The notes: a model not told the origin generated them from the sequence alone. Numbered from the stretch's first letter, positions 3,088-27,520 are shown. The stretch is 64,000 nucleotides of DNA from Waddliaceae bacterium (GCA_963724325.1 CAVRUH010000001.1:256001-320000); one strand, 5' to 3'. Translations and numbers: made by a program.

Positions 3088-3112
3088 TTATGAAACGGGC
3101 CTCACTCTTTCA

Positions 3113-3156: not shown

Positions 3157-3170
3157 ATTTTGAGGTATTT

Positions 3171-3767: not shown

Positions 3768-3813
3768 AAAAAATAAATTAGAATTAAATCAATTTAAAAT
3801 GAGGATAAAAAAA

Positions 3814-4521: not shown

Positions 4522-4650
4522 AAAGGGGAACAGATTGACCGTACATCCGAATGGGATATGCTTCTTCCTTTAAATAAAGCTGGAATGGTTCGTTATGTGG
4601 GTTCGTAACTGCTCGCAGTAATCTGTACAAATCTGATGTTTTCTATTCAT

Positions 4651-5006: not shown

Positions 5007-5010
5007 GTGA

Positions 5011-6195: not shown

Positions 6196-6240
6196 AAATG
6201 TACAGATTTTAGAGAGCGGTGTTTTCACTAGTTTGTATTG
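6085..6240 (+). ncRNA. Putative TnpB omegaRNA (reRNA) scaffold plus flank-derived guide
   Basis: Overlaps the tnpB 3' end and element right end; hairpins gtgatg..catcac and ctgtata-gaaa-tgtacag. Inferred from known TnpB architecture. Confidence 0.5.
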
Positions 6241-6370
6241 ATATCAAAACGTTGTAAATTTCTAATTTTCAGCAAGAAGTGCATTGAACTTGACATTAAT
6301 ATTAAATTTTTATATTTATAATATATTAGTTGAATATATTAATTTAAGTGTCTAATGTTAATGGAGTAAG

Positions 6371-10160: not shown

Positions 10161-13026
10161 GCTGAAACAAGGCCATTTTCAATACTTGAGAAAAATGTAA
10201 AACCTTTCTTCCAGTAGCCTGTTCGATTTGTTCTTTACAGCTGAAACCATTGGCAATGATCAGGGTTTCGGGAGGTGCGTTTCGTATTGCTGGCAAGAGG
10301 ACTCTCTCTGCTGCTTTAAGAGATATGTCATAATGATCTTTTTCAAATCCAAAACTACCTGCCATTCCGCAACAGCCTGCATCCAAAATTTGAAAATCTA
10401 ATCCTAAGCGCTTTAATATCTCTTGCTCATACTCAAAATGGATAACCGATTTATGGTGGCAATGACCTTGTATTAGAGCCTTTTTATGTAATGGCTTAAA
10501 TTTATAATCTTTCAAATTGTGATATAGAAATTCACTTAACATAAAAGTCTGATTTTTTAATCTTTTTGCATTGATATCTGAAGGAAACAGATTTGTAAGT
10601 TCGTCCCTAAAAACAGATATACAACTGGGTTCAAGGCCAATTATGGGAGTCCCATCGAGAATTTCATGTTTTAGTTCTTCCATGATTTGTTTTAGCATTT
10701 TTTTTGCCAATGTAAGCATTCCATAATCATACAATGGTCTGCCGCAGCATAAAGATGCCTTTGGAACACAAACTTCGAATCCCAGATATTCCAATGCTTC
10801 AACGGCATCCTTAGCATGTTGTGGATGAAAGTGATTGTTAAATGTATCTGCCCAAAGGATGACTTTTTTTTGTTTTTTTTCTGATGCACCTCTTTTAAAA
10901 AACCAACTTTTAAAAGTTTCATGAGAAAATGCTGGAATTGTTCTCTTGGGGCTTGTACCAACCACCCATTTGAGAAGATTGGAAAAAGGAGATCGCTGAG
11001 CAAAGAAATTCGCTACTCTCGGCATATATGAAGCAGCACGAGACCACCAATAAATGAGCCCAAAGGCATATGCAGAACGGGGCCTTAAACGACCTTTGTA
11101 ATAATGAGATAAAAATTCAGCTTTATAAGTTGCCATATCAACATTCATCGGACATTCTTTTTTACACGCCTTGCAAGCTAAGCACAAATCCAGAGCTTTT
11201 TTTACGGCATTATCTTTCCAACCGTTTTTTCCAATAATATTCCCCTGGAGCATTTCGAAAAGAAGACGTGCACGCCCCCTTGTGGAATCTTCTTCTTCTT
11301 TTGTAACCATGTAGCTCGGGCACATGGTGCCATTTTCGTTCTTGCGGCATTTTCCAACTCCAACACAGCGCAAAATTGCACGATTAAAACTTCCTTCATC
11401 ATCACCCGGAAATTTAAAATGTGTTTTAATAGGTTTAGGATCGTAGCTGGGGCCTAAACGTAAATTATCCGTTGCTTTATATGCATCTATCATTTTTCCC
11501 GGATTCATTTTCCAGTCAGGATCCCAAATTAATTTGAATTCGCGAAATCCTTGTATTAGTTCAGGTCCAAACATTTTGGGTAATAATTCCGCACGGGATT
11601 GTCCATCTCCATGCTCTCCTGAAAAAGAACCTCCATAAGTCACTACCAAATCGGCAGCTTCATGGATGAATGAACGATATTTTTTTATTCCTTCAGTCGT
11701 ATACATATCGAAATCAATTCTAGTATGAACGCATCCTTGTCCAAAATGGCCATAGAGGGAACAACCATATTCATATTTCTGAAATAGTTTTCTTAAATCT
11801 CGTAGATAATTTCCAAGTTTTTCAGGGGGTACGGCAGAATCTTCCCAGCCTTCCCAGGTATCTTTTCGATTGGGTACTCTGGCAGTTGCTCCGAGACCTG
11901 ATTCCCGAACTTCCGTTATTTTTTCTTCTACTTCTTTATCATCGTACAATTTCATTGTGGGAGCATTTTTAATTTTTGCAAGTGCAGTCATTAATTTCGT
12001 TGCTTTGGCATCAGATTCTTTTTTTGTTTCTCCCCCGAATTCAATGACTAGCCATCCATTTCCCTCGGGTAAAAGATTAATATCTTTTGGATGGATTTTT
12101 TTTTGTTTCATATCACTTATCAAAATATCATCCAATCCTTCAAGGGCAATAGGATTATAAGCCATAATTTCAGGTATATGATCACCGGCAGTATAAATGT
12201 CGGGATAGCCCAAAACTAACATCGATTTAGCTTGAGGATTATCCAATAAACGTAATTTTGCCTCCAAAACGGTAACACAAGTCGATTCACTACCCACTAA
12301 GGATTTGGCAATATCAAATCCATTCTTTTCCAATAACCATGGAAGATTATACCCCGAAACACGGCGAGGAATTTTAGGAAATTTTTCATCAATCAAGGAA
12401 GAGTATTTTTCAGTAAATTCCTTTAATTTTTTGTATATTTCCCCTTTTCTTCCATTTTCTTGCATCAGTAGTTTTAATTGATCCTGAGAAGTTGCGCCAA
12501 CTTTCATAATCAAACCGTCATAGGTCATAATTTCCAATTCGATAACATTGTCATCTGTTTTTCCGCCCATTACGGAATGCGTGCCGCAAGAATTATTTCC
12601 TATCATGCCGCCTAAAGTACAATTATAATGAGTGGACGGATCTGGAGCAAAAGTTAATTTGTGTTTTTCAGCTGCTTTTTTTAATGTATTTAATACTATT
12701 CCAGGCTCTACGATTGCAGTTTTGTTTGCAACATCGATTTTAATAATTTTATTATAATATTTCGACATATCTATAACGACAGCTACGTTGCAACACTGTC
12801 CCGCCAAACTTGTCCCGCCGCCACGGCTGAGAACAGGAGCTTGATATTTCTTACATAAGTTGATTGTTGTAATAATATCTTGTTTATTCTTTGGAATAAC
12901 AACACCAATAGGTACTTGATGATAATTTGAGGCATCAGTTGCATACAGCGCGCGTGAACCATCATCGAATCGAACTTCTCCCTCAATAGAATTTCTTAAT
13001 TCTTGTTCGAGCTTTTTAACATCCAT
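10153..13026 (-). CDS. FAD-linked oxidase with 4Fe-4S and cysteine-rich domains (GlcD/GlcF fusion, YdiJ-like)
   Basis: RGGGTSLAGQ, SGEHGDG, CVGVGKC, CLACKACKKECP and two CCG motifs; start placed at MDVKK. Confidence 0.9.
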   Translation of the reverse strand: MDVKKLEQELRNSIEGEVRFDDGSRALYATDASNYHQVPIGVVIPKNKQDIITTINLCKKYQAPVLSRGGGTSLAGQCCNVAVVIDMSKYYNKIIKIDVANKTAIVEPGIVLNTLKKAAEKHKLTFAPDPSTHYNCTLGGMIGNNSCGTHSVMGGKTDDNVIELEIMTYDGLIMKVGATSQDQLKLLMQENGRKGEIYKKLKEFTEKYSSLIDEKFPKIPRRVSGYNLPWLLEKNGFDIAKSLVGSESTCVTVLEAKLRLLDNPQAKSMLVLGYPDIYTAGDHIPEIMAYNPIALEGLDDILISDMKQKKIHPKDINLLPEGNGWLVIEFGGETKKESDAKATKLMTALAKIKNAPTMKLYDDKEVEEKITEVRESGLGATARVPNRKDTWEGWEDSAVPPEKLGNYLRDLRKLFQKYEYGCSLYGHFGQGCVHTRIDFDMYTTEGIKKYRSFIHEAADLVVTYGGSFSGEHGDGQSRAELLPKMFGPELIQGFREFKLIWDPDWKMNPGKMIDAYKATDNLRLGPSYDPKPIKTHFKFPGDDEGSFNRAILRCVGVGKCRKNENGTMCPSYMVTKEEEDSTRGRARLLFEMLQGNIIGKNGWKDNAVKKALDLCLACKACKKECPMNVDMATYKAEFLSHYYKGRLRPRSAYAFGLIYWWSRAASYMPRVANFFAQRSPFSNLLKWVVGTSPKRTIPAFSHETFKSWFFKRGASEKKQKKVILWADTFNNHFHPQHAKDAVEALEYLGFEVCVPKASLCCGRPLYDYGMLTLAKKMLKQIMEELKHEILDGTPIIGLEPSCISVFRDELTNLFPSDINAKRLKNQTFMLSEFLYHNLKDYKFKPLHKKALIQGHCHHKSVIHFEYEQEILKRLGLDFQILDAGCCGMAGSFGFEKDHYDISLKAAERVLLPAIRNAPPETLIIANGFSCKEQIEQATGRKVLHFSQVLKMALFQPK

Positions 13027-13027
13027 T

Positions 13028-14782
13028 TTAAATGAGTTCCCTTGTTTTATCTGCAACCACTGTCTTCAAAATTAATCCTGCATGAGGTTCTCCTCGAGCA
13101 AGCCCCTCTGCAAAATGAATAGCTTGCTTAAGAGTTGTTTTAGGGGGCATTGGGGGTTCAAATGGATCAACAACTGCTTCGATAATAACGGGTCCTGGGG
13201 TATTTAAAGCTTGTTCCATAATGTGCCCGCAATCTTTAGGATCTTCAATAGTAAAACCTCTTCCCCCGCAAGCCTCGGCAAATTTGGCAAAGTCTATAGG
13301 ATGGAGATCCACTGCATATTCCGGATTTCCTAAGAAAACAATTTGTTCCCATTTAATTTGTCCGAGACAGTTGTTTTTAATGATCACAACTTTAATTGGA
13401 AGATTGTATTTAACCGCTGTGACAAAATCAGCCATCAACATAGAAAAACCACCATCGCCAACAAATGCAATGCATTGTCTATCAGGAAAAGCAATTTGAG
13501 CTGCCAAGCTATAAGGCAGTCCTGGGGCCATTGTAGCCAAATTACCAGAAAGTGAAAACTTCTGTCCTTGTCTGTAGGGAATATGCCGGGCCCACCATGT
13601 CGCTATGGTACCTGAATCACAAGAAACGATAGCATTATCTTTCAATCGTTTGCCTAATTCATGGGCAACAACTTGCGGCTTCATAGGTTTATCCATGCAA
13701 GTTTCATGAACATGCATTTTTTCTTTCCATTCTTTCATCGACTTTTGTGCATAAGACAGAAAGTCTCGATTCTGATTTTTCTCTAATAATGGAATGAGTT
13801 GTTGCAATGTTTTCTTGCTATCTCCTACTAAGCCTACTTCTACGGGACAACGTAATCCTATGCGAGAATTATCTATATCTATTTGAATCACCCTTGCTTT
13901 TCCGGGCTTTGGTAAAAATTCAATATAAGGAAAAGATGTTCCTACCATAATAAGTGTATCGCAAGTTTCCATTGCTTCTGAAGAGGGCAAAGTACCCAGC
14001 AATCCGATCCCCCCGGTAGTGTAGGGGCTATCGTCAGGTATGGATGATTTGCCCAATAATGGCTTTATAATGGGAGCTCCTAATTTTTCAGCTAATTCAA
14101 TGAGCTCATTCGTAGCATGAATGGCTCCTTGTCCAGCCAAAATAGCAATTTTTTTTCCTTCATTAATTAGTTTTGTCGCCTTTATTAAATCTTCGTTTGA
14201 TGGTGTTCCTCCCATATAACTAAAAATATCAGAAGTATGATGCAATAAATTTCGATCGGATTTTTCTTTTTTATTAAGGACTTGGTCTTGAAGGTCAACT
14301 GGCACAGTAATATGTGCAACTCCTCTTTTTGCTAAAGCTGTTCGACAGGCTAGATCAGTGACGTTTTCAGCATGAGAAGCCCCCATAACTCTAGCATTAT
14401 AAACCGTTACATCCTGATAAAGTTTATCTAATTCTACATCTTGTTGTGTGTGTGTATTAATAAGATCATGAAACTGTAATCCTGTAATTGCCAGTACTGA
14501 TTGACCATCCAATTTTGCATCATATAAGCCATTTAATAGATGAATTCCACCTGGGCCGGATGTAGCTAAGCAAACTCCTAACTTTCCTGTATATTTTGCA
14601 TAGCCGCATGCCATAAAGGCTGCACATTCTTCATGACGCACTTGAATAAAGCGGATTTTGTCTTGTCTTTTCCTAAGTGCCTCCATAATTCCATTGATTC
14701 CATCGCCAGGGAGGCCAAAAATCACCTCCACACCCCAATCAATAATTGTTTCTATTATAATATCTGCTGTTGTATCGGACAT
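13028..14782 (-). CDS. poxB: TPP-dependent pyruvate oxidase/dehydrogenase
   Basis: FGLPGDG, QVRHEE, TSGPG, GDGGFSM...NN TPP motif; AGGAG before ATG 14782. Confidence 0.85.
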   Translation of the reverse strand: MSDTTADIIIETIIDWGVEVIFGLPGDGINGIMEALRKRQDKIRFIQVRHEECAAFMACGYAKYTGKLGVCLATSGPGGIHLLNGLYDAKLDGQSVLAITGLQFHDLINTHTQQDVELDKLYQDVTVYNARVMGASHAENVTDLACRTALAKRGVAHITVPVDLQDQVLNKKEKSDRNLLHHTSDIFSYMGGTPSNEDLIKATKLINEGKKIAILAGQGAIHATNELIELAEKLGAPIIKPLLGKSSIPDDSPYTTGGIGLLGTLPSSEAMETCDTLIMVGTSFPYIEFLPKPGKARVIQIDIDNSRIGLRCPVEVGLVGDSKKTLQQLIPLLEKNQNRDFLSYAQKSMKEWKEKMHVHETCMDKPMKPQVVAHELGKRLKDNAIVSCDSGTIATWWARHIPYRQGQKFSLSGNLATMAPGLPYSLAAQIAFPDRQCIAFVGDGGFSMLMADFVTAVKYNLPIKVVIIKNNCLGQIKWEQIVFLGNPEYAVDLHPIDFAKFAEACGGRGFTIEDPKDCGHIMEQALNTPGPVIIEAVVDPFEPPMPPKTTLKQAIHFAEGLARGEPHAGLILKTVVADKTRELI

Positions 14783-14804
14783 ATTAATTCTCCTTTTATT
14801 TGTT

Positions 14805-15173
14805 TTAACATCCAAAAGCAATAGTTGTCATTAAGGCATTTTCTGCTTGCCTTGAGTCTAATCTTGTATGTTGGATAATAATATCCACATTAGAAATGAA
14901 TAAACTTGCATAGTCTGTTCCCTTAGGGATCGGGACAGGATCATTTAAATCATTAAATCTAAGATGCTTAGTCCTCTTGGGGGCAACAGAAATATGGTAA
15001 GGTCCTATGGGTTCTTTATCAGAAAAATAAATCGTAAGTTCAATTTTAGCCTCTTGATCAGAAACATTGAGAATACAAGCTGCTTCATGGCTCAATAATT
15101 CAGGGCCCGTTGTATGGCTATAAGGAGGAATATACCCCTCAGGAATTGCCCAGCATTTGTGTCCGATTTTCAT
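14805..15173 (-). CDS. Anabaena sensory rhodopsin transducer (ASRT) family protein
   Basis: IGHKCWAIPEGYIP, SHEAACILN, RTKHLRFNDL, IIQHTRLDSRQAENALMTT. Confidence 0.9.
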   Translation of the reverse strand: MKIGHKCWAIPEGYIPPYSHTTGPELLSHEAACILNVSDQEAKIELTIYFSDKEPIGPYHISVAPKRTKHLRFNDLNDPVPIPKGTDYASLFISNVDIIIQHTRLDSRQAENALMTTIAFGC

Positions 15174-16255
15174 ATAATTACCTCGCGTTTTAAGTACTTT
15201 TGAATATCTTTATCTTTCAACTCTAAGCCATGCCCATAGCGATCTAGGTGAGGTAAAAGATGACCTTTTTCTAATATTGGAAAACCATCAAAGAACGTTT
15301 CTTCTATTCTCACATGATCATGGAAGTACTCCATATGACAAACGTTTGATTGACTTAAACAGGCATGTAGATGGACAGAAGGGGCAGTATGACTCGATAA
15401 AGGAATATCAAACCCTTTACTAAGATTACATGCTTGAAAAAAACCTGTATAACCACAACACCTTGTGGCGTCTGCTTGAATGACATCAACACACTGAGAT
15501 TGAAGCATATCTTTAAAAAAGAATGAATTATAACCATATTCACCAGCAGTGATATCCATCGATGTTTGATTTCGCAGTAAATGAAGCCCTTGAAAATCAT
15601 AAAAAGGAACAGGTTCTTCAAACCATGTAACACCATATTCACGGAATTTTTCAGCAAAATTTAAAGCTTGTTTTAGCGTATAAGCTCCATTGGCATCTAC
15701 AAATAAAGCGTCAGTTGCATCTATTGCATTTCTTGCCTCTTTTACTCTAGTGACATCTTGAGAAGGATTTCTTCCTACCTTCATTTTAAATTTATTAATT
15801 CCCTTTTCTTTCCATTTTTGGAATTGAATAGCAGTTTCTTCATTTGAATAAGAAGTAAATCCACCACTACCATATACAGGGACTTTTTCACGTGCCATGC
15901 CCCATAAGTGACAAAGTGGAATTTCTAATATTTTTGCTTTCAAATCCCACAAAGCAATATCTACAGCTGAAAGAGCATGGGCGGCAATTCCTGTCGACCC
16001 GAAATTTCTAACCGAATTCAACATTTGATCATGTATTAGAGGAAGATTGTCTATGGACATATTATTCAAAATAGGTGCAAAATTCTTTTGGATAACATCC
16101 ACGCATGCTTCATGAGCATAACTAAAGCCTAGACCTACCTTATCTTGAAATTGCAAAACAATTAATACTACAGTAGTACTTTTCCATTTTAACGTCCCGT
16201 CAGATTCCTCAGAATCGCATGGAACATCATATGCGCAAATTTTGATTTTTTGCAT
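15170..16255 (-). CDS. Mandelate racemase/muconate lactonizing enzyme (enolase superfamily)
   Basis: SAVDIALWDLKAK, KMKVG, FVDANG, WFEEP, AGEYGY. Confidence 0.9.
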   Translation of the reverse strand: MQKIKICAYDVPCDSEESDGTLKWKSTTVVLIVLQFQDKVGLGFSYAHEACVDVIQKNFAPILNNMSIDNLPLIHDQMLNSVRNFGSTGIAAHALSAVDIALWDLKAKILEIPLCHLWGMAREKVPVYGSGGFTSYSNEETAIQFQKWKEKGINKFKMKVGRNPSQDVTRVKEARNAIDATDALFVDANGAYTLKQALNFAEKFREYGVTWFEEPVPFYDFQGLHLLRNQTSMDITAGEYGYNSFFFKDMLQSQCVDVIQADATRCCGYTGFFQACNLSKGFDIPLSSHTAPSVHLHACLSQSNVCHMEYFHDHVRIEETFFDGFPILEKGHLLPHLDRYGHGLELKDKDIQKYLKREVII

Positions 16256-16588
16256 AGTTTTCTCCAGTATAAACAAAGCCTTTTTTGGCATATTGTGGTT
16301 TTACTAAAACCGCTCATAAATCATTCAGAAGAAGGATAGTCATCTAAAATTAGAAACTATCACAATTTTGGAATAATATTCAAGAATCATTTTTCCTTGA
16401 TGGAGACTAACAAATATTAATCGTCATATTATACTTCCATGCCAGTCTTGATCCCATCATTATCGACGTAAATTTTGATTCCATTAATAGAATCTTACTA
16501 TTATAAAAATTGAAAGGAAGATTTTTATTCACGCAGGTGCTAAACCATTGCGAATATTTCTAGAACATAATATAAGAACGCAAAAAAA

Positions 16589-18020
16589 ATGTTAAATATA
16601 AATGATTACTCTTGGGCGCCAGCTTCTTTTGTTCTGGCCTTGGGACTTTTGCCGATAACTGGTTTAAAGTCCACGGAGGCCAATCACGTCGAAGGCGGCC
16701 TCATCACCTTCAACGATAACGGAGCCTGGTGCTGGTATCAGGACCCAAGAGTGGTAGTGGATACGGTCAATAACACTCTGATTATCACTTCTATCGCCGC
16801 TGCGGAAGGGGTAGATGGAGATAAGCGTGTCGGCGATGTCGATCTAGTAACTTATCATCTCAATAGCGGCAAGACAGATCGTTTTATTCTAAAACACAAC
16901 CTCTTGGAGCAGGATGATCATAATGCCGCCGCCTTGTTGATTCGACCTGATGGCCGTTATTTAGCAATGTACTCACGCCATAATAAAGACGCCTATCATT
17001 ACTGGCGCGTTTCAATTCATCCTCATGATACTTCAGAGTGGGGACCAGAGCTTACTTTCGACTGGCTTCCATATCTCAATGCTTTCAATCAAAGAAATCA
17101 CGTCACCTATACCAATCTCTTTCATCTTTCAGCCGAAAATCGCACATACAATTTTTCCCGAGCCATTAACTGCGATCCAACAATTCTTATTTCCACCGAT
17201 CATGGCAACAGTTGGTCATTTGGAGGCAAACTTCTCACTGAGAAGCTCGTAGGGTACGTTAATAGCTATACCAAATATGCTTCCAATGGCATAGATAGGA
17301 TTGATTTTCTCTCGACAGAGCATCACCCGCGCGATTTTGACAACAATATTTATCATGGATATATCAAAGGCGATGCTTTGCATAACTCCACAGGAAATAT
17401 TATCGATGATAATGTTTTCAATGGCCAAGACCACACGCAGAAGCTACTGACAAAGGTCTTTGCCACAGGCCTCATCGTTGAAGAGGATGTGATGAGCCAT
17501 GCTTGGACAATCTGCTTGCATGTTGATGCTCTAGGGCATCCATATGGCTTGATTTCTTGTCGTGCTAACGACATTCCACAGAACACCAACTTTAACGACC
17601 ACCGCTTTTTTTATGTTCGTTTCGATGGCAATACTTGGCAGGTACATCATTTAGCGAAAGCTGGCGCCTGTCTTTTGGCCTGACGAAGAAGATTATACCG
17701 GCATAGGCGATGTCGATCCGGCTGATCCCAATATTGTCTACATTTCCACCACCATTGATCCGCATGACGGTAAGCCATTGAACGTCCACGAGATCTTTAA
17801 AGGCATCACTACCGACGGCGGCGCCACTTGGACTTGGACATCAATCACACGGGATTCCAGCGTCGACAATCTCCGTCCTATTTGTGTATCGTGGAATGAC
17901 GGCAATAGCGCTGTGCTTTGGTTCCGGGGCACCATGAGTCGCTCGCAACACTACAATTGCGCCATTGTCGGAATAATCATGAAAAAACAGCTATACCCTT
18001 GTTCTAGCAAATATTATTGA
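16589..18020 (+). pseudogene. BNR-4 repeat beta-propeller protein, split by one frameshift
   Basis: GAWCWYQDPR and DDHNAAALLIRPDG motifs; removing one T from the run at 17673-17676 joins KAGACL to WPDEEDYTG...HEIFKGITTDGGATW of ORF 17778-18020. Confidence 0.75.
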
Positions 18021-18092: not shown

Positions 18093-19433
18093 ATGTTATC
18101 GAAATTTTGGGAACATCCTCTAAAGATGTTATTTTTAAGTTTGTTTTTGATGATGAGTTCCATCGATCAATCATATTCTGCATCTGAAGAATACGAGCTC
18201 CATCCTAAAGAAATCATGTCTTTTCATATAGATTATAAAGAATCTATATCCGAACTGTGTCTTATAGGGGCAAAATACGACACAGATAAATCACCACAAC
18301 AAATAAATATGACAAACAATAGCCGTTGTCACCCATATACTTTATTTTACAACTCCCTATTCAAAGACAAAAGAGATCACAAACTTGTGATTGCAGAATT
18401 AGGAATACTTAATGGCGCTTCACTATTAATGTGGAAAGAGTATTTTCCCCATGCGAAGTTGTATGGATTTGAATCTAACATTCAATTTATTAATGCATTT
18501 GAAAATAATTTCGATAGAGATCGAATTACATTAGCTCACATGGACATACAAGATGAATCGAGCATTGTACATGCACTACATTCAACTGGAGAACAATACG
18601 ATCTAATTATCGAAAATACCACTCATCTGCTTGAAGATCAAATAAGGATTATCGAAAATGTCTATTCATATTTGAAACCTGGTGGAATCCTTATCATTGA
18701 AGGTATATCTAAGAATTTTCAAGAGCAAGATTATATTGATAGACTGAGTCCAATCTTAGGAACATTTCAAGACTATTATTTTATTTCGATGGATCACAAA
18801 AATAGAAATTCGTCCGGGTGGGATGACAATAAACTGTTTGTGTTAGTAAAAGGAGGAGCTAATCCGATCTTCCAAAACAAGAGAAAAATAACAATCATTA
18901 CTCCTTCCATGCGTCCTGGCAATCTAATTGCAGTAAAAAATTCTATAAATTTTGATTACGTGGATGAATGGATTATTGTTTATGACGGAAGTAAAATCTT
19001 AGAAAATCCTCATCTGTTTACAGATGAAGAAAATGGAAAAATTAAAGAGTATATTCACGAGAGCAAAGGGATGAGCGGAAATCCTCAAAGAAATTATGCC
19101 CTGGATCTTGTTCAAAATGAAGACACATATCTGTATTTTGTCGATGACGATAATGTGATACACAAAGATTTATATAAACTCTTAGATATTATAGATGATG
19201 GCAAAATATACACTTTTGATCAAGAAAACAGATTAAAGGGAAATGTCATTGCATGGGCTAAAATAGACACAGCTATGATTTTAATCGATTTCAAGCTATG
19301 TAGAAACCAACGATGGATTCTGGACAGATACGGAGCAGATTTTTTTTACTTTAATGCATGCTATAAACAAAACAAGGATAAGTGGATTTATGTCAATAAT
19401 GTACTGTGCACCTACAATAAATTGCCTAGATAA
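18093..19433 (+). CDS. Fusion of class I sugar O-methyltransferase-like domain and GT-A (GT43-like) glycosyltransferase, with N-terminal hydrophobic leader
   Basis: TDKS..HPYTLFY..ELGILNGASLLMWKEYFP..LKPGG; then IITPSMRP, WIIVYD, GNPQRNYALD, YFVDDDN. Confidence 0.75.
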   Translation: MLSKFWEHPLKMLFLSLFLMMSSIDQSYSASEEYELHPKEIMSFHIDYKESISELCLIGAKYDTDKSPQQINMTNNSRCHPYTLFYNSLFKDKRDHKLVIAELGILNGASLLMWKEYFPHAKLYGFESNIQFINAFENNFDRDRITLAHMDIQDESSIVHALHSTGEQYDLIIENTTHLLEDQIRIIENVYSYLKPGGILIIEGISKNFQEQDYIDRLSPILGTFQDYYFISMDHKNRNSSGWDDNKLFVLVKGGANPIFQNKRKITIITPSMRPGNLIAVKNSINFDYVDEWIIVYDGSKILENPHLFTDEENGKIKEYIHESKGMSGNPQRNYALDLVQNEDTYLYFVDDDNVIHKDLYKLLDIIDDGKIYTFDQENRLKGNVIAWAKIDTAMILIDFKLCRNQRWILDRYGADFFYFNACYKQNKDKWIYVNNVLCTYNKLPR

Positions 19434-19452
19434 GCACATCACTCTGGCGAGA

Positions 19453-20199
19453 ATGCATCTCTTTATTTACAGTCTTTTTTTTGTTTTCCTATCTTTTCAT
19501 CCATTGTCAGCTGAAGAACCTTTATTATTAGATCGCTTCCATATTTGTACTGTGGCCTCATTTGAAAACGATTATTTAAATAAACTCAATACATCATGCA
19601 ACATGCATCATATAGATTTAGAGATTATTGGATTAGATTTACCTTATTATGGTAATGGAACAAAACTTCTTCGTTTGAGTGAATACTTAAGCGGACTCGA
19701 TGACGATGATATCGTCATGTTTGTAGATGCCTTCGACGTCCTAATCATTGTTGATAAAGAAGTGATTTTACAGAAATTTTTAGATATGAATGTCCCATTT
19801 GTCATGTCTGCAGAAAAAAATTGTTTTCCTTTTGCTAATCTTGCTGATCAATATCCTGAAACCACCAGTCTATTTAAATTTATCAATTCAGGGGCTTTTA
19901 TTGGTTATGTGCGGAACCTAAAAACATGGTTAAAGGACCTTAGCCCTTTCGATTTACAAAAAAGCGATCAAGGTCAAATTACAATTCACTACTTAAGCAA
20001 TCCAGAGGCATTTGCTATAGATTATTACTGCGAGTTGTTTTTGTCGTTATATCATGTAAAGGAGCAAGAAATTGCAATTGATGATGACAATGGAGTGGTA
20101 CATTGTTTAATAACGGGTTCTGAGCCGTGTGCGATTCATGCAAATGGAAAATCTTTTTATCTTTGGAACATCATCTATGAAAAATTGGTAGTCAATTGA
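19453..20199 (+). CDS. PLOD/procollagen glycosyltransferase-like domain protein with signal peptide
   Basis: ICTVAS, GNGTK, DDIVMFVDAFDV, MSAEKNCFP, FINSGAFIG, SDQ match the PLOD GT domain pattern; leader ends PLSA-EE. Confidence 0.8.
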   Translation: MHLFIYSLFFVFLSFHPLSAEEPLLLDRFHICTVASFENDYLNKLNTSCNMHHIDLEIIGLDLPYYGNGTKLLRLSEYLSGLDDDDIVMFVDAFDVLIIVDKEVILQKFLDMNVPFVMSAEKNCFPFANLADQYPETTSLFKFINSGAFIGYVRNLKTWLKDLSPFDLQKSDQGQITIHYLSNPEAFAIDYYCELFLSLYHVKEQEIAIDDDNGVVHCLITGSEPCAIHANGKSFYLWNIIYEKLVVN

Positions 20200-20840
20200 A
20201 TCTATACTTAAGAATATTCTACATCATATCTTTAATTATTTCGCACAATATAGATGCGCTTGATGACAAAATTAAACAAGATATTAAACATCTAGTAGCA
20301 AATAATCCAAATCAGCTTGTAGAAGTCGAATACACATTAATAGTTGAGAAACTAATAAATAAATCGCCTTGTAATATGCTTGTCTTTGGCGTAGGTCGGG
20401 ATAGTAAGCTGTGGATAGAAAGTAACTTCCTCGGTCAAACTATCTTTCTGGAAGACAATAAAACCTGGTTTAATCGTATATGCTCGGAAATTCCGCAAAT
20501 AAATGCCTGCCTTGTACAGTACAACACAAAAAGAAAAGATTGGCAATATTGGCTTGAGGAATCTAAGGCGCAAGAACTCTTGCTAGATCTTCCATCAGAA
20601 ATAATGGAGACTAAGTGGGACATTATTTTTGTTGATGGGCCAGAGGGATGGTCTGATGATAAACCCGGTAGGATGAAAAGTATTTTTACAGCAGCATATC
20701 TCGCTTATAAAAGTGAAAACTGTCATGTCTTTGTACATGATTGCGATCGTCCTGTTGAGGCAATTTATAGCTCAATGTTTTTAATGGATGAAAATTTAGA
20801 GTGCACTCTATGCCGCCTTCGCCACTATTTTATTCCTTGA
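20196..20840 (+). CDS. DUF579 polysaccharide methyltransferase (plant GXM/IRX15-like)
   Basis: PCNMLVFGVGRDS, TIFLED, WDIIFVDGP, PGRMKSIFTA, VFVHDCDRPVE, LRHYFIP; TTG start overlaps upstream TGA. Confidence 0.85.
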   Translation: MNLYLRIFYIISLIISHNIDALDDKIKQDIKHLVANNPNQLVEVEYTLIVEKLINKSPCNMLVFGVGRDSKLWIESNFLGQTIFLEDNKTWFNRICSEIPQINACLVQYNTKRKDWQYWLEESKAQELLLDLPSEIMETKWDIIFVDGPEGWSDDKPGRMKSIFTAAYLAYKSENCHVFVHDCDRPVEAIYSSMFLMDENLECTLCRLRHYFIP

Positions 20841-20990
20841 ATTTCAGTTCTAAGGCGTAGATTTGCGCTTTCTCAAAAAACTTTACACATAATTAACATA
20901 ATCTTTATATATCCTTAATACTTATGATATATAATTATTATTTAAAACAGTAAAGTTTTAATATATATCAAAAAAAAGGAGATGTTAATC

Positions 20991-21656
20991 ATGGATATTA
21001 GAAAAATAGACACTTATGGCGTAGAATCAAATAGCCAAAAGTTTACAAAGCCACTACGTGCATTACTTGGTGGAAAAAAAATTACACAAATGGAAGATGG
21101 CACTTCGCAGGCTAAACAAATCGCTAACCTCGCCGCAAGAATATTACTCGCTCTTGCTCTCGTAATTAGCGGTATCGGACTTCTATACATTATACCTGCC
21201 GCAATTGTCTTAGCTGCTGCATCAAAGCCAGAAAAAATACCTGCTCTTATGTTAAAAGAAACTGAAACAAAAGTGACTGTTTTAGACACAGAGGAAGAAA
21301 ACATAATTACTGAAGAAAAAGAAATTGAAGAACTTACATTTGCTCAAAAGGCAGTCCTTGTTGAACCAAAATTATCAAAGGAAACTGAAGAGGAATCTAA
21401 AATTACCGTTCTATGCTTAATGGATATTGAAAAAGTAGAGACAGTTACAATATCTATGATTAGTGATTCCGAAAAAAAAGTTCTGGACGTGAAACCGGCT
21501 TATATACCGAAGAATGCTAATAAACAAACAAAAAAGAAATTAAATAGTAAAGCGACTAAAAATGCGCAAAAACTAGCTAAAGAAAGAGAAGTAAACGATT
21601 TATATAACGAAATCACTTTAACAGAATCAAATAAAACAATAAAGAAAAAACAGTAG
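20991..21656 (+). CDS. Inc-like membrane protein (bilobed hydrophobic segment, charged tail)
   Basis: ARILLALALVISGIGLLYIIPAAIVLAAA followed by acidic then lysine-rich tail; AGGAG upstream. Confidence 0.7.
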   Translation: MDIRKIDTYGVESNSQKFTKPLRALLGGKKITQMEDGTSQAKQIANLAARILLALALVISGIGLLYIIPAAIVLAAASKPEKIPALMLKETETKVTVLDTEEENIITEEKEIEELTFAQKAVLVEPKLSKETEEESKITVLCLMDIEKVETVTISMISDSEKKVLDVKPAYIPKNANKQTKKKLNSKATKNAQKLAKEREVNDLYNEITLTESNKTIKKKQ

Positions 21657-21753: not shown

Positions 21754-22812
21754 TCACTTAGCCTTAAGAGAAGACATATCGATAGAGAAGCGGTATTTCA
21801 CATCGGATTTGAGCATTCTTTCATAGGCTTCATTGACCTTTTGAATGGAAATAACTTCAACGTCAGCAGTAATATTATGCTCACCACAAAAGTCGAGCAT
21901 CTCCTGGGTTTCGGCGATGCCGCCGATGAGGGAACCGGAGAGGCTATGGCGTCCCATGATAAGAGAAAATGGCGAAAAACCCAAGGGTTTCGGCGATACA
22001 CCGACCAGTGTAATGGTACCGTCGATGCGCAGCAATTTGAGGTAGACGTTGATATCATGATCGGCAGAAACAGTGTCAAGAATGAAGTCAAAACTACCGG
22101 CGTGTTTTTGCATCTCGTCATTATTTTTGGAAATAACAACCTCATCGGCGCCAAGGCGGAGAGCGTCTTCCTTCTTGCTAGGAGAGGTGGTGAATACAAC
22201 TACATGGGCGCCAAATGCATGGGCAAACTTAACACCCATGTGACCCAGTCCTCCAAGGCCAATCACACCAACCTTCTTGCCTTTTGTTACTTCCCAGTGT
22301 CGCATTGGCGAGTAAGTTGTGATCCCAGCACAGAGAAGAGGCGCTGTTCCAGCAAGATCGAGGTTAGGGGGTACGCGCAATACAAAGCGTTTGTCTACGA
22401 CGATACTAGTAGAATAACCACCGTAGGTTACGCCTCCAAGATGTTTGTCTGGTCCATTAAAGGTAAGGGTTAAGTTAGGACAGAATTGTTCAAGGCCAGC
22501 CTTGCAATTGGGACAGGTGCCATCCGCATCGACCATACAGCCAACTGCCACTATGTCACCGACCTTGTAATTAGTAACAGATGGTCCAATTTTAGTAACA
22601 CGGCCCACGATCTCATGGCCCGGAACGATAGGATAAACAGTGGGCACAGTACCACTCCATTCATTACGGACTTGGTGAAGGTCTGAGTGGCAAATGCCAC
22701 AGAAGAGGATTTCGATCTGAACATCATTTTCAGTTATATCGCGACGCTTGATTTCAGCGGGAGCCAGCGGCGAGGTTGAACTAACAGCAGAGTAAGCTTT
22801 TGCATTATACAT
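21754..22812 (-). CDS. Zn-dependent NADP(H) alcohol dehydrogenase (YahK/CAD type)
   Basis: CGICHSDLH, PGHEIVG, APLLCAGIT, GLGGLG, DVKYRFSID. Confidence 0.95.
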   Translation of the reverse strand: MYNAKAYSAVSSTSPLAPAEIKRRDITENDVQIEILFCGICHSDLHQVRNEWSGTVPTVYPIVPGHEIVGRVTKIGPSVTNYKVGDIVAVGCMVDADGTCPNCKAGLEQFCPNLTLTFNGPDKHLGGVTYGGYSTSIVVDKRFVLRVPPNLDLAGTAPLLCAGITTYSPMRHWEVTKGKKVGVIGLGGLGHMGVKFAHAFGAHVVVFTTSPSKKEDALRLGADEVVISKNNDEMQKHAGSFDFILDTVSADHDINVYLKLLRIDGTITLVGVSPKPLGFSPFSLIMGRHSLSGSLIGGIAETQEMLDFCGEHNITADVEVISIQKVNEAYERMLKSDVKYRFSIDMSSLKAK

Positions 22813-23053: not shown

Positions 23054-24323
23054 ATGATAGTTAGATCAATAGACACTTTCGGCGTAGAATCAAATGGCCA
23101 AAAATTTACAAAACCACTGCGCGCATTACTTGGCGGCAGAAAAAATTACACGTATGCAAGATGGTACTTTGCAGGCAAAACAAATAGCTAACCTCGCCGC
23201 AAGAATACTACTCGCTCTTGCCCTCGTAATTAGCGGTATCGGACTTTTATACATTATACCAGCTGCAATTGTCTTAGCCGCAGCACCAAGGACCAAAAAA
23301 ATACCCACTCTTAAACCTGTAGAAACTGAAACAAAACCAGTGGCTAATGCTTCTCTGGCTGAAATAGTTACTCCTTCAAAGGATATCAAAACAAAAGAAA
23401 CTGTTTTAGAGCAAAAAGTTGAAGAAGAAAAAGAAGAGCCTAAAGAAACAATTATTACCCCTTCAAAGGATATTGAAACAGAAGAAACTATTTTAGAGCA
23501 AAAAGTTGAAGAAGAAGAAGAGCCTAAAGATGCAATTGTTACTACTTCAAAGGATATCGAAACAGAAGAAACTATTTTAGAGCAAAAAGTTGAAGAAGAA
23601 GAAAAAGAAGAGTCTAAAGAAGCAATTGTTACTCCTTCAAAGGATATCGAAACAGAAGAAACTGTTTTAGAGCAAAAGGTTGAAAAAGAAGAAGAAGAAC
23701 CTAAAGAAGCAATTATTACGGCACCAATGGTTATCGAAGCAGAAGAAACTGTTTTAGAGCAAAAGGTTGAAAAAGAAGAAGAAGAACCTAAAGAAGCAAT
23801 GGTTACCCCTTCAAAGGATATCGAAACAGAAGAAACTATTTTAGAGCAAAAAGTTGAAGAAGAAGAAAAAGAAGAGTCTAAAGAAGCAATTGTTACCCCT
23901 TCAAAGAATATCGAAATAGAAGAAACTATTTTAGAGCAAAGGGTTGAAGAAGAAGAAAAAGAAGAGCCTAAAGAAGCAATTGTTACTCCTTCAAAGGATA
24001 TCGAAACAGAAGAAACTGTTTTAGAGCAAAAGGTTGAAAAAGAAGAAGAAAAAGAAGAGTCTAAAGAAACAATTGTTATGGCACCAATGGTTATCAAAAG
24101 TCAAAATATTGTTTTCGAAAATAAGGTTGAAGATTCCCCATCTGTTGTAACAGGAAGATCCCCTAAAGCAGTTGCACCCAAGCAAGTCTCACAAGGCAAC
24201 ACAAAGAAAGCAGGAAAGAAAAAAGCAAAAAGAGAAGCGAAAAAGTCAGCTGTACTTGCAAGATTAGGCTCTATAATCCAAGATTTTAAATCTGACACTA
24301 AAAAACCAAAGAAGAGAAAGTAG
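23054..24323 (+). CDS. Inc-like membrane protein with acidic tandem repeats; apparent +1 frameshift near the 5' end
   Basis: 5' end aligns codon-for-codon with paralogue 20991 until an extra A in the A6 run at 23140-23145; downstream frame has the identical hydrophobic segment. Confidence 0.7.
23361..24130 (+). repeat. Intragenic tandem repeat, 84-93 bp unit, 8 copies plus one degenerate
   Basis: Unit KEAIVTPSKDIETEET(I/V)LEQKVEEEEKEE(P/S). Confidence 0.95.
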
Positions 24324-24684: not shown

Positions 24685-26443
24685 ATTTTCCTGCTTGAGA
24701 GGGCAGTGCAATAGTAAATGTTGACCCCTTGTCAACTTGTGATTCTACTGAAACCCTTCCGAAGTGCTTGGTTACGATCATTTCGACGATTGAAAGACCC
24801 AAGCCAGAGCCGCCAACTTTTTTTGAACGTGCCTTATCAACCTGATAAAATCTATGAAAGATATTGCTTAGGTCCTTATCAGGGATGCCAAGCCCTTTGT
24901 CGGTGACGGAAAGATAAATCCAGCCTCCCTCTTCTTTAAGAGAAATGGTTACCTCTGCTGGAGGCTCGGAATAATTTACCGCATTAGTCAACAAATTCAT
25001 GATCGCTAGGTCGAGAAGATTTGGATCGGCAAGAAGGTGGAAATCGCTATTGGAGACACGGACTAATTTAACTTTAGCATCAGGATGGGCATCGTGGATG
25101 CTCTCAATACATCTTTCTGCCAAATCGACAAGATCGCAATCAAAAAGACGTGTTTCTGGAATTCGCTCGATATCGGTAATAGTGAGAAGGTCTTTGATTA
25201 GAATCGTCATTTTTTCACAATTTTTGACGATTTTCCGAGTAATTTCCTCAGTAATTTTTTTGTCTAGATCAGGATTATCATAGAGGGTTTCAGCAAATCC
25301 ACGAATGATAGTAATGGGCGTCTTTAACTCGTGCGAGGCATTGGCGATGAAATCTTTTCTCATTTCAATGAGTTTATAATGTTCGGTTGTATCATGAAGA
25401 ACTAAAATTGCTCCAGTGCCATCACGTGTAGGAGCGGCAATGGCATTGAGATAAATCCTTTCTCCATTCCTTTTAATATCTAATGTTTCAGTGATAATAA
25501 TTTTTTCATCTAGACATTTTTTTAGAATGAAATAGCATCTATCATGTATTTCACTTGTGAAGGCTTTACCGAGAAAATCTTTCGCCTTAATTTTAAGGTG
25601 TTTGATAGCCATTGTGTTTGCATATTCGACGATCATATTTGAGTCGAGAGAAATTACCCCTTCAACTAGGGACTCCAGAATGGTATCTCGCTCGTTTTTT
25701 TCGTGGGTTATTGAATTAATCTGGTCGCTTAATTTGATAGAAAGAGAATTCAGGGTATCGGCCAGTTTTCCAAATTCATCTGTCCTGCCCTTGGGTTGCA
25801 ATTGTATTTCAGGAACGGTAGTGGTCAAACCCTGTTGGTAGGGGATGATTGCTTTATTTATCTGCTGGATGGGTTTTGTGAGGTAATTGATGACAAACCA
25901 GGTCATGGTGCTAAATAAAATAAGGACAAATATCGCTGCTCCAAAAATACCTATTTCAAACTCATTTGTGAGGGCTTCTACATATTTTAGAGGAAATGCA
26001 ATCCGGAGCACGTATGTTTCCCCATGAAAATTGAATGCTTTTGCAAAGTAAGCAAAATCTTGATCAAAGAGTTTGGAATATCCTTCGGAGTAACCGACGC
26101 CTTTCTCGAAGGCCTCATTCACTTCAATATGATTCACAATATATTCAGGATTAAAATCCTCACCTAAAAATCTTTTCACGTGGGAATCGTAAATCACCTT
26201 TTTTTCACTGCTAATTACCGCTACTCGGAAGTAAATGATCGACTTTTGTTCTTTCAGATTCTGAATCAGCGAATCGTCATCTGGAGAATCCTTGATTCTT
26301 GAAATGAGTTCCTCGGCTCGCTCGTCCATTGCGGTAAATGAAATGTCCTTAACAGTTCTATGGGCAAAGGGAAACAAGAGACCTATGATGAGAAAAAATA
26401 CAAAAAGATAGGTTGCAAGGATTTTTTGCCTAAATGTCAGCAT
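24683..26443 (-). CDS. PhoR-like sensor histidine kinase (2 TM, HAMP, PAS, HisKA, HATPase)
   Basis: FIANASHELKTP H-box, NLLTNAVNY, DKGLGI, FHRFYQVD, GSGLGLSIV. Confidence 0.92.
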   Translation of the reverse strand: MLTFRQKILATYLFVFFLIIGLLFPFAHRTVKDISFTAMDERAEELISRIKDSPDDDSLIQNLKEQKSIIYFRVAVISSEKKVIYDSHVKRFLGEDFNPEYIVNHIEVNEAFEKGVGYSEGYSKLFDQDFAYFAKAFNFHGETYVLRIAFPLKYVEALTNEFEIGIFGAAIFVLILFSTMTWFVINYLTKPIQQINKAIIPYQQGLTTTVPEIQLQPKGRTDEFGKLADTLNSLSIKLSDQINSITHEKNERDTILESLVEGVISLDSNMIVEYANTMAIKHLKIKAKDFLGKAFTSEIHDRCYFILKKCLDEKIIITETLDIKRNGERIYLNAIAAPTRDGTGAILVLHDTTEHYKLIEMRKDFIANASHELKTPITIIRGFAETLYDNPDLDKKITEEITRKIVKNCEKMTILIKDLLTITDIERIPETRLFDCDLVDLAERCIESIHDAHPDAKVKLVRVSNSDFHLLADPNLLDLAIMNLLTNAVNYSEPPAEVTISLKEEGGWIYLSVTDKGLGIPDKDLSNIFHRFYQVDKARSKKVGGSGLGLSIVEMIVTKHFGRVSVESQVDKGSTFTIALPSQAGK

Positions 26444-27513
26444 AATGCCCCGCCAATTGTGTGCGGCTGGGTTGATCTCTTTGTCAAATTCTCATGCCCC
26501 TCTCCAGTAATAACAACGGTATCTTCAATACGTACACCGCCAACATCAGGAAGATATATTCCTGGCTCTATCGTGATGACCATTCCTGGTTTAAGTTGCA
26601 TTTCACCATGCGGTGGTATATTTCGCACTGTTGGGGCTTCATGAATTTCTAGGCCGACTCCATGACCTAAGTTATGTGTAAACTGATCTCCATATCCCTT
26701 GGAATTTATAAATCCTCTCGCAGCATCGTCAAGTTCCCCGATTGTCGTTCCTGGCTTGCAAATATGCAGAGCTCTCTCCTGTGCCTCACGAACGATTTCG
26801 TATATGGTTTCTATACGCGGATCGGGATTGCCAAAAAAGACCACGCGTGTCATATCCGAATGGTAATGTTTCCAGTTGACGCCGATGTCAATAAGGACTG
26901 GTTGTCCAAATAGCAACTGAGTATTTCCGGGTCGATAGTGCGGCATGGAAGAATTGTGCCCAAATGCTATAATAGGGTCAAATCCAAGCCCCTTGCTTCC
27001 TCTTCTCTTCCAGAATATTTCTAGTTCAACAGCAATCTCAACTTCGGTAATGCCTTCTCTAAGGAGTGTGCAAACAAAGTCAAATCCTGCTGATCCCACG
27101 CTAGCTGCATCGCGAAGGAGGTCGATTTCATACTTATCTTTAATTAGACGTAAAGTCTCCACAGGTCTATTAGCTGGAATCAATTCAATATTTTTTATCT
27201 GTGCTGTTTTCTGCAATTCCACATATTGCTGAAATGATGTTTTTTCACTACTAAAAGCTAGTTTTTTTAATCCATTCGATGCTAGAAGTTCCCATACAGT
27301 ATCAGGCTTGCTAAGAACAACAGAAATTGGACTTTTCTTTGAACAGGCCTCAAAATACCGGCTATCCACAATGAGATAGGCCCCATTTTTATGGACAAGG
27401 ACTTTTCCTGCGGTAAGCTCCATCCCTGTAAGGTAATACATATTGATCGGATCATCGATCAATAGAGCCGTTTCATTTGTCTTTTGTAGAGCTTCTATTC
27501 GTTTGTTGTACAT
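26437..27513 (-). CDS. pepP: Xaa-Pro aminopeptidase (M24B)
   Basis: HYHSDMTR, HNLGHGVGLEIHE, TIEPGIY, GVRIED. Confidence 0.92.
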   Translation of the reverse strand: MYNKRIEALQKTNETALLIDDPINMYYLTGMELTAGKVLVHKNGAYLIVDSRYFEACSKKSPISVVLSKPDTVWELLASNGLKKLAFSSEKTSFQQYVELQKTAQIKNIELIPANRPVETLRLIKDKYEIDLLRDAASVGSAGFDFVCTLLREGITEVEIAVELEIFWKRRGSKGLGFDPIIAFGHNSSMPHYRPGNTQLLFGQPVLIDIGVNWKHYHSDMTRVVFFGNPDPRIETIYEIVREAQERALHICKPGTTIGELDDAARGFINSKGYGDQFTHNLGHGVGLEIHEAPTVRNIPPHGEMQLKPGMVITIEPGIYLPDVGGVRIEDTVVITGEGHENLTKRSTQPHTIGGALC

Positions 27514-27520
27514 TTTTTCC

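Follow-up and report, generated by a model that had tools for sequence, protein, structure and literature searches.

How could bacterial enzymes that consume nucleotide sugars and S-adenosylmethionine (SAM) work outside the cytoplasm, where both are absent and glycosylation is thought to depend on lipid-linked donors? This question is raised by a 64,000-nucleotide (nt) stretch of the genome of a Waddliaceae bacterium (GCA_963724325.1 CAVRUH010000001.1:256001-320000, hereafter the window; genome of 2.37 Mb in 11 contigs, 84.6% complete), which carries a cassette of three genes, g1, g2 and g3 (Table 1), with closest named homologues in Criblamydia sequanensis, Parachlamydiaceae and 'Chlamydiae bacterium' assemblies, on which basis the genome is taken to be that of an environmental chlamydia. 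An initial annotation of the window had described the three genes as co-oriented, closely coupled and leader-bearing, and this was confirmed: all three lie in the same orientation, 19 nt separate g1 from g2, the g2 stop and g3 start overlap by 4 nt, and each product begins with a hydrophobic leader according to heuristic calls. The puzzle is real as well: leader-bearing enzymes would have to find nucleotide sugars and SAM outside the cytoplasm. Judging from sequence, we consider it somewhat probable that these are Sec-exported enzymes that add sugars to an extracytoplasmic acceptor and methyl-cap them, using host-derived uridine diphosphate (UDP)-sugars and SAM.

The identities of g2 and g3 were as initially annotated. 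g2 is a PLOD-type glycosyltransferase (GT) that matches PF25342 (GT_PLOD) with 120.8 bits (E 7.3e-35, cut-off 27) over profile positions 5-227 of 246, and g3 is a DUF579 methyltransferase that scores 151.4 bits against PF21729 (IRX15/IRX15L/GXM; cut-off 27.8) and 156.2 bits against TIGR01627 of NCBIfam (cut-off 149.85). Across a phylum sample of 401 genomes, PF25342 was found in 23 and PF21729 in 6, and all six of the latter also contain PF25342. At each of the five other chlamydial DUF579 loci a g2-like gene adjoins the g3-like gene (four co-oriented and one convergent), and among the best 80 of 202 loci from a DUF579 profile scan that took a single genome for each prokaryotic species, a g2 homologue lies beside the DUF579 gene at four, all of them chlamydial. 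Two metagenomic proteins (P0038 and P0046), both N-terminally cut by contig ends, are direct GT_PLOD-DUF579 fusions with a short linker in place of the DUF579 leader. At least 11 contig sizes recur in the g3 and g2 match lists (14794, 2323, 38033, 2606, 4629, 18708, 57828, 6800, 22758, 4722 and 1648), an indirect hint that both genes are carried by many further contigs of metagenomic origin. Of the 401 genomes, 7, including this one, have a full-length g1 orthologue (E <= 1e-160); no g1 was found at the five other g2-g3 loci (0/5), nor g2 or g3 at the five g1-orthologue loci (0/5). This adjacency and the fusions, with g1 unlinked elsewhere, indicate that g2-g3 is a conserved unit, translationally coupled here through the 4-nt overlap, and that g1 is a separate gene lying upstream of it only in this genome. 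Operon conservation across the Chlamydiae thus holds for g2-g3 and fails for g1, and the pair supplies a first genomic partner for prokaryotic DUF579 proteins. None of the three genes was found in six other genomes of the same family, including the congener G195 (97% complete), and a complex prediction for mature g2 and g3 (score 0.00, mark 0.32) is evidence neither way. In one genome (L136) the g1 orthologue has one in-frame TAA near its end and an open reading frame (ORF) called at 437 amino acids (aa), and may be slightly truncated.

Predicted export follows from the N-termini. In g1, g2 and g3 an uncharged hydrophobic run of 10-13 residues (mean Kyte-Doolittle hydropathy 2.2-2.6) begins within the first 12 residues, small-x-small sites come after it (SYS↓A in g1, LSA↓EE in g2 and IDA↓LD in g3), and net charge past the leader is negative; the n-region of g2 is uncharged if translation starts at 19453, the public gene call giving an alternative start at 19390 (269 aa). 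The same pattern, with runs of 10-16 residues and AXA-like sites, was observed in 14 orthologues and neighbouring enzymes of other chlamydial genomes, which include g2 and g3 orthologues and GT2-PLOD, GT90, GT34 and methyltransferase proteins, whereas among 12 proteins of the window used as controls no N-terminal run reached a mean hydropathy >= 2.2, and the controls were negative apart from weak Rossmann-type N-termini. Among the best 120 g1 matches, 33 have classic leaders ending in VNA, LNA, VDA or IHA before a variable linker, and within this family leader sequences diverge while mature parts keep 58-68% identity. Because the hydrophobic runs are too short for a membrane helix, cleavable Sec signals would be favoured over anchors, and from the way charge is distributed, export of the C-terminal side is predicted. 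The g1 start at 18093 is preferred on account of its leader-bearing orthologues and a GGTAGG motif 7 nt upstream.

Alternatively, the three proteins could be ordinary cytoplasmic or inner-membrane-tethered enzymes of lipopolysaccharide (LPS) or exopolysaccharide synthesis, with N-termini that are anchors or start artefacts and domains that face the cytoplasm. Leloir GT-A enzymes and SAM methyltransferases are cytoplasmic as a rule, and most DUF579 copies outside the chlamydiae begin directly with the catalytic domain (a crude leader scan of the best 80 of 202 loci flagged 11, several being artefacts of choosing the most hydrophobic upstream start). A deoxythymidine diphosphate (dTDP)-rhamnose, GT2, Wzx and PMT_2 cluster within the window and the omission of the leader from the public g1 call also speak for this explanation. 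However, the 10-16-residue runs, AXA-like sites and negative charge together make up a cleavable N-in/C-out signal pattern, and in the chlamydial g1 clade all 38 members with a leader keep its properties despite sequence divergence. The GT-DUF579 fusions have no internal leader, as expected if a single N-terminal signal serves both domains, and at least 12 kb, in which unrelated genes lie, separates the cassette from the rml/Wzx cluster. We regard a cytoplasmic role as unlikely.

The active site of g2 was compared with its best relatives in the Protein Data Bank (PDB), mimivirus R699 (E 2.8e-17) and human LH3 (PLOD3; its GT domain, E 3.1e-15), over ~170-215 aligned residues. Passages of two reports describe R699 as a collagen galactosylhydroxylysyl glucosyltransferase in which the Mn-binding residues are D83 and D86, the uridine-stacking residues are W48 and Y85, and K62, E114, W118, D162/D163 and N218 take part in sugar binding or catalysis, with the D162-D163 pair binding the galactose acceptor (PMC9546862, PMC12279948). 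In g2, D92-A-F94-D95 aligns to R699 D83-x-Y85-D86, keeping an aromatic residue at the UDP-stacking position; D92 and D95 are invariant in 9/9 chlamydial PLOD-type GTs (alignment A2), and K71, E121 and N231 align with R699 K62, E114 and N218. On the acceptor side, phenylalanine stands at the position of R699 W118 and LH3 W145, and S171-D172 at that of R699 D162-D163 and LH3 D190-D191. Retained DxxD and donor residues together with changed acceptor residues suggest a subfamily whose donor and metal site is intact and whose acceptor or sugar pocket is altered. In contrast to R699 and LH3, g2 is a single domain with a Sec-type leader and no accessory or lysyl-hydroxylase domain, and it is paired with a DUF579 methyltransferase and not with collagen genes.

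These relatives raise the possibility of collagen-type glycosylation, in which g2 would glucosylate galactosylhydroxylysine or another residue of collagen-like proteins and g3 would methylate the sugar. R699 and LH3 are the closest solved relatives of g2, R699 being reported, in the passages cited, to act on collagen galactosylhydroxylysine, and this genome has 35 collagen-repeat matches in ~8 genes. A collagen-repeat gene is found one or two genes away in two of three chlamydial loci of GT2-...-PLOD-GT type (L131 and L132), and collagen repeats occur in 15 of 23 PF25342 genomes versus 161 of 378 others, a weak difference that is also confounded by the relatedness of the genomes. The multidomain enzymes of L131 and L132 have 787, 1197 and 756 aa, and in the large ones (787 and 1197 aa) the PLOD-GT is C-terminal, the L132 protein having one more domain beyond the GT at its C-terminus. 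With their collagen-repeat neighbours, these enzymes look like a candidate locus for collagen glycosylation in chlamydiae, separate from the DUF579-linked subfamily. At the acidic-pair site of alignment A2, four multidomain or collagen-associated GTs read I/T-D-D-Q, whereas the five standalone leader-bearing GTs, four of them DUF579-linked, read K/A/R/M-S/C-D-Q. The collagen-linked paralogues thus keep D-D, while all five standalone GTs have S-D or C-D, and g2 itself departs at both W118/W145 and the acceptor-binding pair. Moreover, no collagen gene stands beside g2-g3 here or at the five other loci, collagen repeats are common across the phylum (176 of 401 genomes), and no 2OG-FeII_Oxy_3 hydroxylase (PF13640) was found in the 84.6% complete genome, a provisional absence from a search that did not extend to PF03171. 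Collagen glycosylation by g2-g3 therefore appears quite improbable.

The g3 family has 19 invariant columns, including L62, F64, G67 and D69 (motif I), G158-R159-M160, D182, R185 and E188, and G65 of motif I is nearly invariant. Plant DUF579 proteins (the methyltransferases GXM/GXMT of glucuronoxylan and AGM of arabinogalactan, and IRX15) belong to the same PF21729 and TIGR01627 families and likewise have an N-terminal hydrophobic segment, which in g3 would also place the domain outside the cytosol; the g3 leader is short and cleavable-looking, whereas the plant Golgi enzymes have a type II anchor. The label 'eukaryote-type' did not stand, as DUF579 is not restricted to eukaryotes and is a large prokaryotic and phage family. 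The best 80 of its 202 loci (38-55% identity) come from cyanobacteria, Thermoactinomyces, Gemmatimonadota, Myxococcota, Chloroflexota, Bacteroidota and others, and the ESM Atlas clusters nearest to g3 are phage and bacterial. Relatives of g3 are chlamydial first (45-77% identity), then cyanobacterial, Thermoactinomyces, Gemmatimonadota and others. A PDB profile search found no solved DUF579 structure, solely spurious repeat matches to Photorhabdus lectins. Cyanobacterial copies (Okeania, Lyngbya and Arthrospira) are frequently fused to long N-terminal regions; at five loci of filamentous cyanobacteria (L032, L034, L040, L043 and L051) DUF579 is at the C-terminus of far longer ORFs, with 165-420 residues ahead of it, and in at least two (L040 and L051) the upstream segment resembles a class-I methyltransferase motif.

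A reaction modelled on the plant enzymes was also considered, in which g2 and g3 would add and 4-O-methylate glucuronic acid (GlcA), like plant GUX/GlcAT with GXM/AGM, so that a uronic-acid glycan with a methyl cap would arise on the bacterial surface, inclusion or host glycoconjugates. To our knowledge, and as far as the sources at hand describe them, characterised DUF579 enzymes are GlcA 4-O-methyltransferases only, and g3 scores above both the PF21729 and TIGR01627 cut-offs. The DUF579-linked GTs read K/R/A-S-D-Q against I/T-D-D-Q in the paralogues, with serine after lysine or arginine in three of four and after alanine in the fourth, and a serine-for-acidic change would suit an acidic sugar. 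Two UDP-glucose/GDP-mannose dehydrogenase-family genes are present in the genome. Nevertheless, the specificities within this large prokaryotic and phage family are uncharacterised, and the solved relatives of g2 transfer glucose or galactose, not GlcA, in the passages available. The initial annotation had pointed to a GH39 xylosidase and a UDP-GlcA epimerase-like gene in the window, both of which are non-specific and unlinked to the cassette. The GH39 gene is real (PF01229, 475 bits), but it is leaderless, ~9 kb from the cassette with opposite-strand genes between, and outside the unit; a PF10091 gene is leaderless and likewise separated by opposite-strand genes. The supposed UDP-GlcA epimerase is a generic short-chain dehydrogenase/reductase (SDR) epimerase/dehydratase below every NCBIfam equivalog cut-off (best GalE, 156 bits versus 262), also outside the cassette unit. 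We consider a GlcA-specific pathway highly doubtful.

g1 had been called GT43-like, which overlooked its methyltransferase half. Its Pfam scores are 27.6 bits for Methyltransf_31, 21.7 for GT2 (PF00535, cut-off 23.3) and 16.2 for GT43 (PF03360, E 0.0096, cut-off 27; profile positions 39-97 of 207 only), so that membership of GT43 was rejected; certain g1 orthologues hold a precomputed PF00535 assignment. In an AlphaFold2 model of g1 with 31 homologues (predicted local distance difference test, pLDDT, 88.1; residues 1-37 <50), a leader that is disordered or helical (1-37) precedes a Rossmann methyltransferase domain, and a GT-A domain makes up the C-terminus. The macrolide-sugar O-methyltransferases MycE and SpnK are the best Foldseek matches of the methyltransferase half (E 1.2e-9 to 6e-9; 16-19% identity over ~245 columns, a comparison of folds with active-site residues outside it). 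The C-terminal 191 residues modelled alone (pLDDT 93.4) matched the fucosyltransferase WrtF (E 2e-7) and human GlcAT-P/S of GT43 (E ~6e-7; rank 10-15; query template-modelling score, TMq, 0.67-0.71), and the GT2 enzymes SpsA, TarS, TarP and RmlT score alike (TMq 0.60-0.72 over all). The modelled likeness to GT43 thus appears to be at the level of fold only, with GT43 not singled out over GT2 or WrtF. An L-D-D-D-N motif with a DxD-type DDD is nearly invariant across the g1 family (alignment A3), and the models suggest that g1 combines a leader, a metal-dependent-type sugar O-methyltransferase-like domain and a minimal DxD GT-A domain in an uncharacterised family. The best structural matches to its two halves (TylE-type MycE/SpnK, GT43 GlcAT-P/S, GT2 SpsA, TarS and RmlT, and WrtF) share 11-19% sequence identity with g1, which falls below the GT43 and GT2 Pfam cut-offs; compared with those solved enzymes, its GT-A is minimal (191 aa) and both activities are fused in one leader-bearing, predicted-exported polypeptide.

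The connection to giant viruses in the initial annotation holds, and g1 belongs to a family present in them as well. A word-index search returned 814 proteins at E <= 0.001 out of 3786 candidates, the best 120 at 58-68% identity. The ESM Atlas cluster nearest to g1 (score 0.98) is 98% viral (Nucleocytoviricota), and IMG/VR has eight g1-related loci, five of them full-length at 52-59% identity over residues 40-444. The g1 homologues have as neighbours genes for MutS7-HNH, the RNA polymerase subunits Rpb2 and Rpb5, and a fused topoisomerase II on the viral contigs, which are therefore genuinely of giant-virus (Mimiviridae-like) origin; the match in BFVD is the Sylvanvirus protein A0A3G5AJA9 (44% identity, TMq 0.88). 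An unrooted maximum-likelihood tree was calculated from 129 rows (g1, 119 listed matches, 4 viral and 5 chlamydial genome copies), leaving out L019 (which nearly duplicates L018), L021 to L023 (incomplete copies) and P0065 (= g1). All 38 leader-bearing rows fall within a single clade of 45-46 rows, and the few 'leaderless' rows that it contains come from miscalled start codons (the mature part of P0086, for instance, is identical to that of a leader-bearing genome copy). The other clade is leaderless in 83/83 rows and contains three of the four giant-virus contigs, the fourth being unplaced on a long branch. SH-like approximate likelihood ratio test (SH-aLRT) values are 87-88 for the clade split and 95 for a 48-row set. 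The giant-virus methyltransferase-GT (MT-GT) proteins (Sylvanvirus A0A3G5AJA9 and GVMAG contigs of IMG/VR) have the same fusion as g1, but they are leaderless and Asn-rich (12.9% Asn versus 7.7% on the g1 side), whereas the chlamydial clade has leaders. The g1 family is thus a clear case of genes common to chlamydiae and Mimiviridae-like viruses, and g1 offers a tractable bacterial handle on a conserved, uncharacterised giant-virus enzyme. Joint acquisition of the three genes from a giant virus was rejected, as none of the eight g1-bearing viral loci holds g2 or g3 (0/8); scans of viral contigs found g3 at one locus at 40% identity and g2 at two weak loci.

With domain identities, catalytic motifs, leader conservation, gene linkage and taxonomic distribution established, we infer export, donors, an acceptor (a surface or secreted glycoconjugate) and a reaction order as follows. 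Sec export and leader cleavage would bring the enzymes into the periplasm, onto the cell surface or into the inclusion lumen, where g2 would use a UDP-sugar to glycosylate an extracytoplasmic acceptor and g3, in the most likely order, would then methyl-cap the added sugar, while g1 would independently add and/or methylate another sugar. UDP-sugars and SAM would be supplied by the host surroundings of the intracellular chlamydia, and candidate acceptors are LPS, surface proteins of the bacterium, and glycoconjugates of the inclusion or the host. A T2SS-F gene in the genome makes release past the periplasm possible. A precedent for a bacterial glycosyltransferase acting outside the bacterium on a host donor is GlgA of C. 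trachomatis with UDP-glucose that host SLC35D2 imports, where, in the portion of the report drawn on, UDP-glucose is brought into the lumen of the inclusion and used by the secreted bacterial enzyme (PMC4829429). Compared with that glycogen system, the cassette has Sec-type signals, and its predicted products are tailored or methylated glycans, not glycogen.

Several observations weigh against extracytoplasmic tailoring by Sec-exported enzymes. Export is derived from leader calls made with our own heuristic, not with SignalP or a trained predictor, and the public gene call for g1 (P0065, 427 aa) begins past the hydrophobic core, so that the g1 leader hinges on the choice of start codon. Most bacterial DUF579 proteins and all giant-virus g1 homologues are leaderless, which suggests that these families are normally cytoplasmic, and no precedent for a Sec-exported Leloir glycosyltransferase or SAM methyltransferase was found in our literature searches. 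As g1 is unlinked to g2-g3 in the other genomes examined, the three genes may not form one pathway, and the neighbours of g2-g3 differ at all five other loci, with no conserved acceptor gene. A SAM synthetase was not found in the 84.6% complete genome; this absence is provisional, and SAM may be imported. The C. trachomatis glycogen enzymes have no signal peptide, and type 3 secretion is reported for them in the same portion of that source (PMC4829429). No literature combining 'glucuronoxylan methyltransferase' and Chlamydiae was found, and searches on chlamydiae/giant-virus glycosyltransferases, on Parachlamydia signal peptide/collagen and on Sec-dependent chlamydial glycosyltransferases, with supplements outside their scope, found nothing on the cassette.

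Similar clusters elsewhere, of leader-bearing enzymes from families of ER/Golgi type, make the puzzle of exported nucleotide-sugar and SAM enzymes a general one in environmental chlamydiae. At L137, genes for leader-bearing GT90 (three copies), GT34, FkbM-type and Methyltransf_24 proteins surround the g1 orthologue, a PLOD-GT at L140 lies with two GT90 genes and a methyltransferase gene, and leader-bearing Methyltransf_24 genes adjoin the g1 orthologues of L135 and L138; no GT90 was found in the genome studied here. Tentatively, and with more doubt than confidence, environmental chlamydiae may perform a Golgi-like extracytoplasmic tailoring, in which Sec-exported soluble Leloir GTs and SAM methyltransferases (PLOD-type, DUF579, GT90, GT34 and giant-virus-shared MT-GT families), with parts exchanged with giant viruses in the same protist hosts, would draw on host nucleotide sugars and SAM in the periplasm or inclusion lumen and yield methyl-capped glycans on surface proteins, possibly collagen-like, or on inclusion or host glycoconjugates. 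What survives of the Golgi-like system first proposed is the cluster and its export puzzle, without the three-gene operon, the eukaryote-type label and GT43. If true, Leloir transferases and SAM methyltransferases exported by Sec would form an exception that life in a host compartment makes possible, the idea of the chlamydial inclusion as a metabolically active, organelle-like space would be extended, and methylated surface glycans not yet known could shape host recognition.

Table 1 Coordinates of the g1-g2-g3 cassette, other features of the window and related loci in other chlamydial genomes
Feature	Position	Strand	Size or extent	Assignment or detail
g1	18093-19433	+	446 aa; ORF open from 18063	leader, sugar-O-methyltransferase-like domain and minimal GT-A
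g1 leader	18093..18179	+	~residues 1-29	n-region K4, K11; h-region MLFLSLFLMMSS; candidate cleavage SYS↓A or SAS↓E
g1 class-I SAM methyltransferase domain	18210..18857	+	~residues 40-255	Pfam match at residues 110-216
g1 GT-A domain	18858..19430	+	residues 256-446	L-D-D-D-N motif (D351-D353)
g2	19453-20199	+	248 aa	leader and PLOD/R699-type GT-A glycosyltransferase
g3	20196-20840	+	214 aa; TTG start	leader and DUF579 (IRX15/GXM-type) methyltransferase
Upstream neighbour	16589-17683	+	364 aa	BNR_4 (PF15892) gene
ORF with BNR Asp-box	17778-18020	+	80 aa	frame differs from BNR_4 gene
Downstream paralogous membrane proteins	20982-21656 and 23094-24323	+		common N-terminal hydrophobic segment
Tandem repeat in second paralogue	23363-24078		8.1 copies of 90 bp (30 aa)	acidic
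Zn-alcohol dehydrogenase	21754-22812	opposite		between the two paralogous membrane-protein genes
GH39 gene	7361-8803			PF01229
Rhodopsin-transducer block	14805-16291			PF07100 homologue
dTDP-rhamnose cluster	32.6-47 kb			rml, GT2, epimerase, PMT_2 and Wzx genes
SDR epimerase/dehydratase gene	35550-36512			generic
AAA_21 and RloB-like pair	43638-45589			between rmlA/rmlB and Wzx-type flippase
Cytochrome genes	57879-63680			COX1, FixO-like and multi-domain c-type cytochrome
L131 (G170:C1)	2272-6809			leader-bearing multidomain enzymes, GT2 + TPR or Anp1-like + PLOD-GT
L132 (G042:C1)	6259-13270			leader-bearing multidomain enzymes, GT2 + TPR or Anp1-like + PLOD-GT
L136 (G306:C1)	7148-8461			g1 orthologue
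L137 (G354:C25)	2731-9955			g1 orthologue with flanking genes
L140 (G369:C13)	2549-8449			PLOD-GT with neighbouring genes

The genomic setting of the cassette is that of an accessory region. Its G+C content (GC) is 0.32-0.36 and its third-codon-position GC (GC3) 0.29-0.32, compared with a window GC of 0.389 and GC3 of 0.35-0.47 in housekeeping genes, and certain accessory genes nearby are as AT-rich as the cassette itself. Window positions 10000-16262 correspond to one contig of the congener G195 at 81% identity, positions 24709-28976 to a different G195 contig at 67%, and the alcohol dehydrogenase gene to a third place in G195; apart from this gene, the 16.3-24.7 kb interval has no collinear counterpart there. 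The missing counterpart and these mosaic matches place the cassette in a variable, mosaic region, and it is better described as a horizontally mobile accessory set of glycan-tailoring enzymes that bear Sec-type signals. Counts of promoter-like sites (11 versus 15.9 expected) and terminator-like sites (2 versus 1.8 expected) between 17600 and 21100 are uninformative. The upstream BNR_4 region (16589-18020) has a GC of 0.45-0.48, well above that of the cassette, and probably lies outside the unit; the BNR_4 gene and the 80-aa Asp-box ORF in another frame could be a frameshifted or split gene.

Other features of the window were also recorded. The two paralogous membrane proteins downstream of g3 have the N-terminal segment …QAKQIANLAARILLALALVISGIGLLYIIPAAIVLAAA… in common and no Pfam match; this segment includes a ~30-residue hydrophobic stretch split by G-I-G, which resembles the bilobed domain found in the inclusion-membrane (Inc) proteins of chlamydiae. 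The acidic repeat listed in Table 1 is found in the second of them. Upstream, the Anabaena sensory rhodopsin transducer homologue (PF07100, 174.8 bits) lies directly 3' of a mandelate racemase/enolase-superfamily gene, in a block kept at 81% identity in the congener. The AAA_21 ATPase and RloB-like genes, presumably a defence-type pair, are inserted within the dTDP-rhamnose cluster, and towards the end of the window the COX1 and FixO-like cytochrome oxidase genes adjoin the multi-domain c-type cytochrome, which has 1077 aa.

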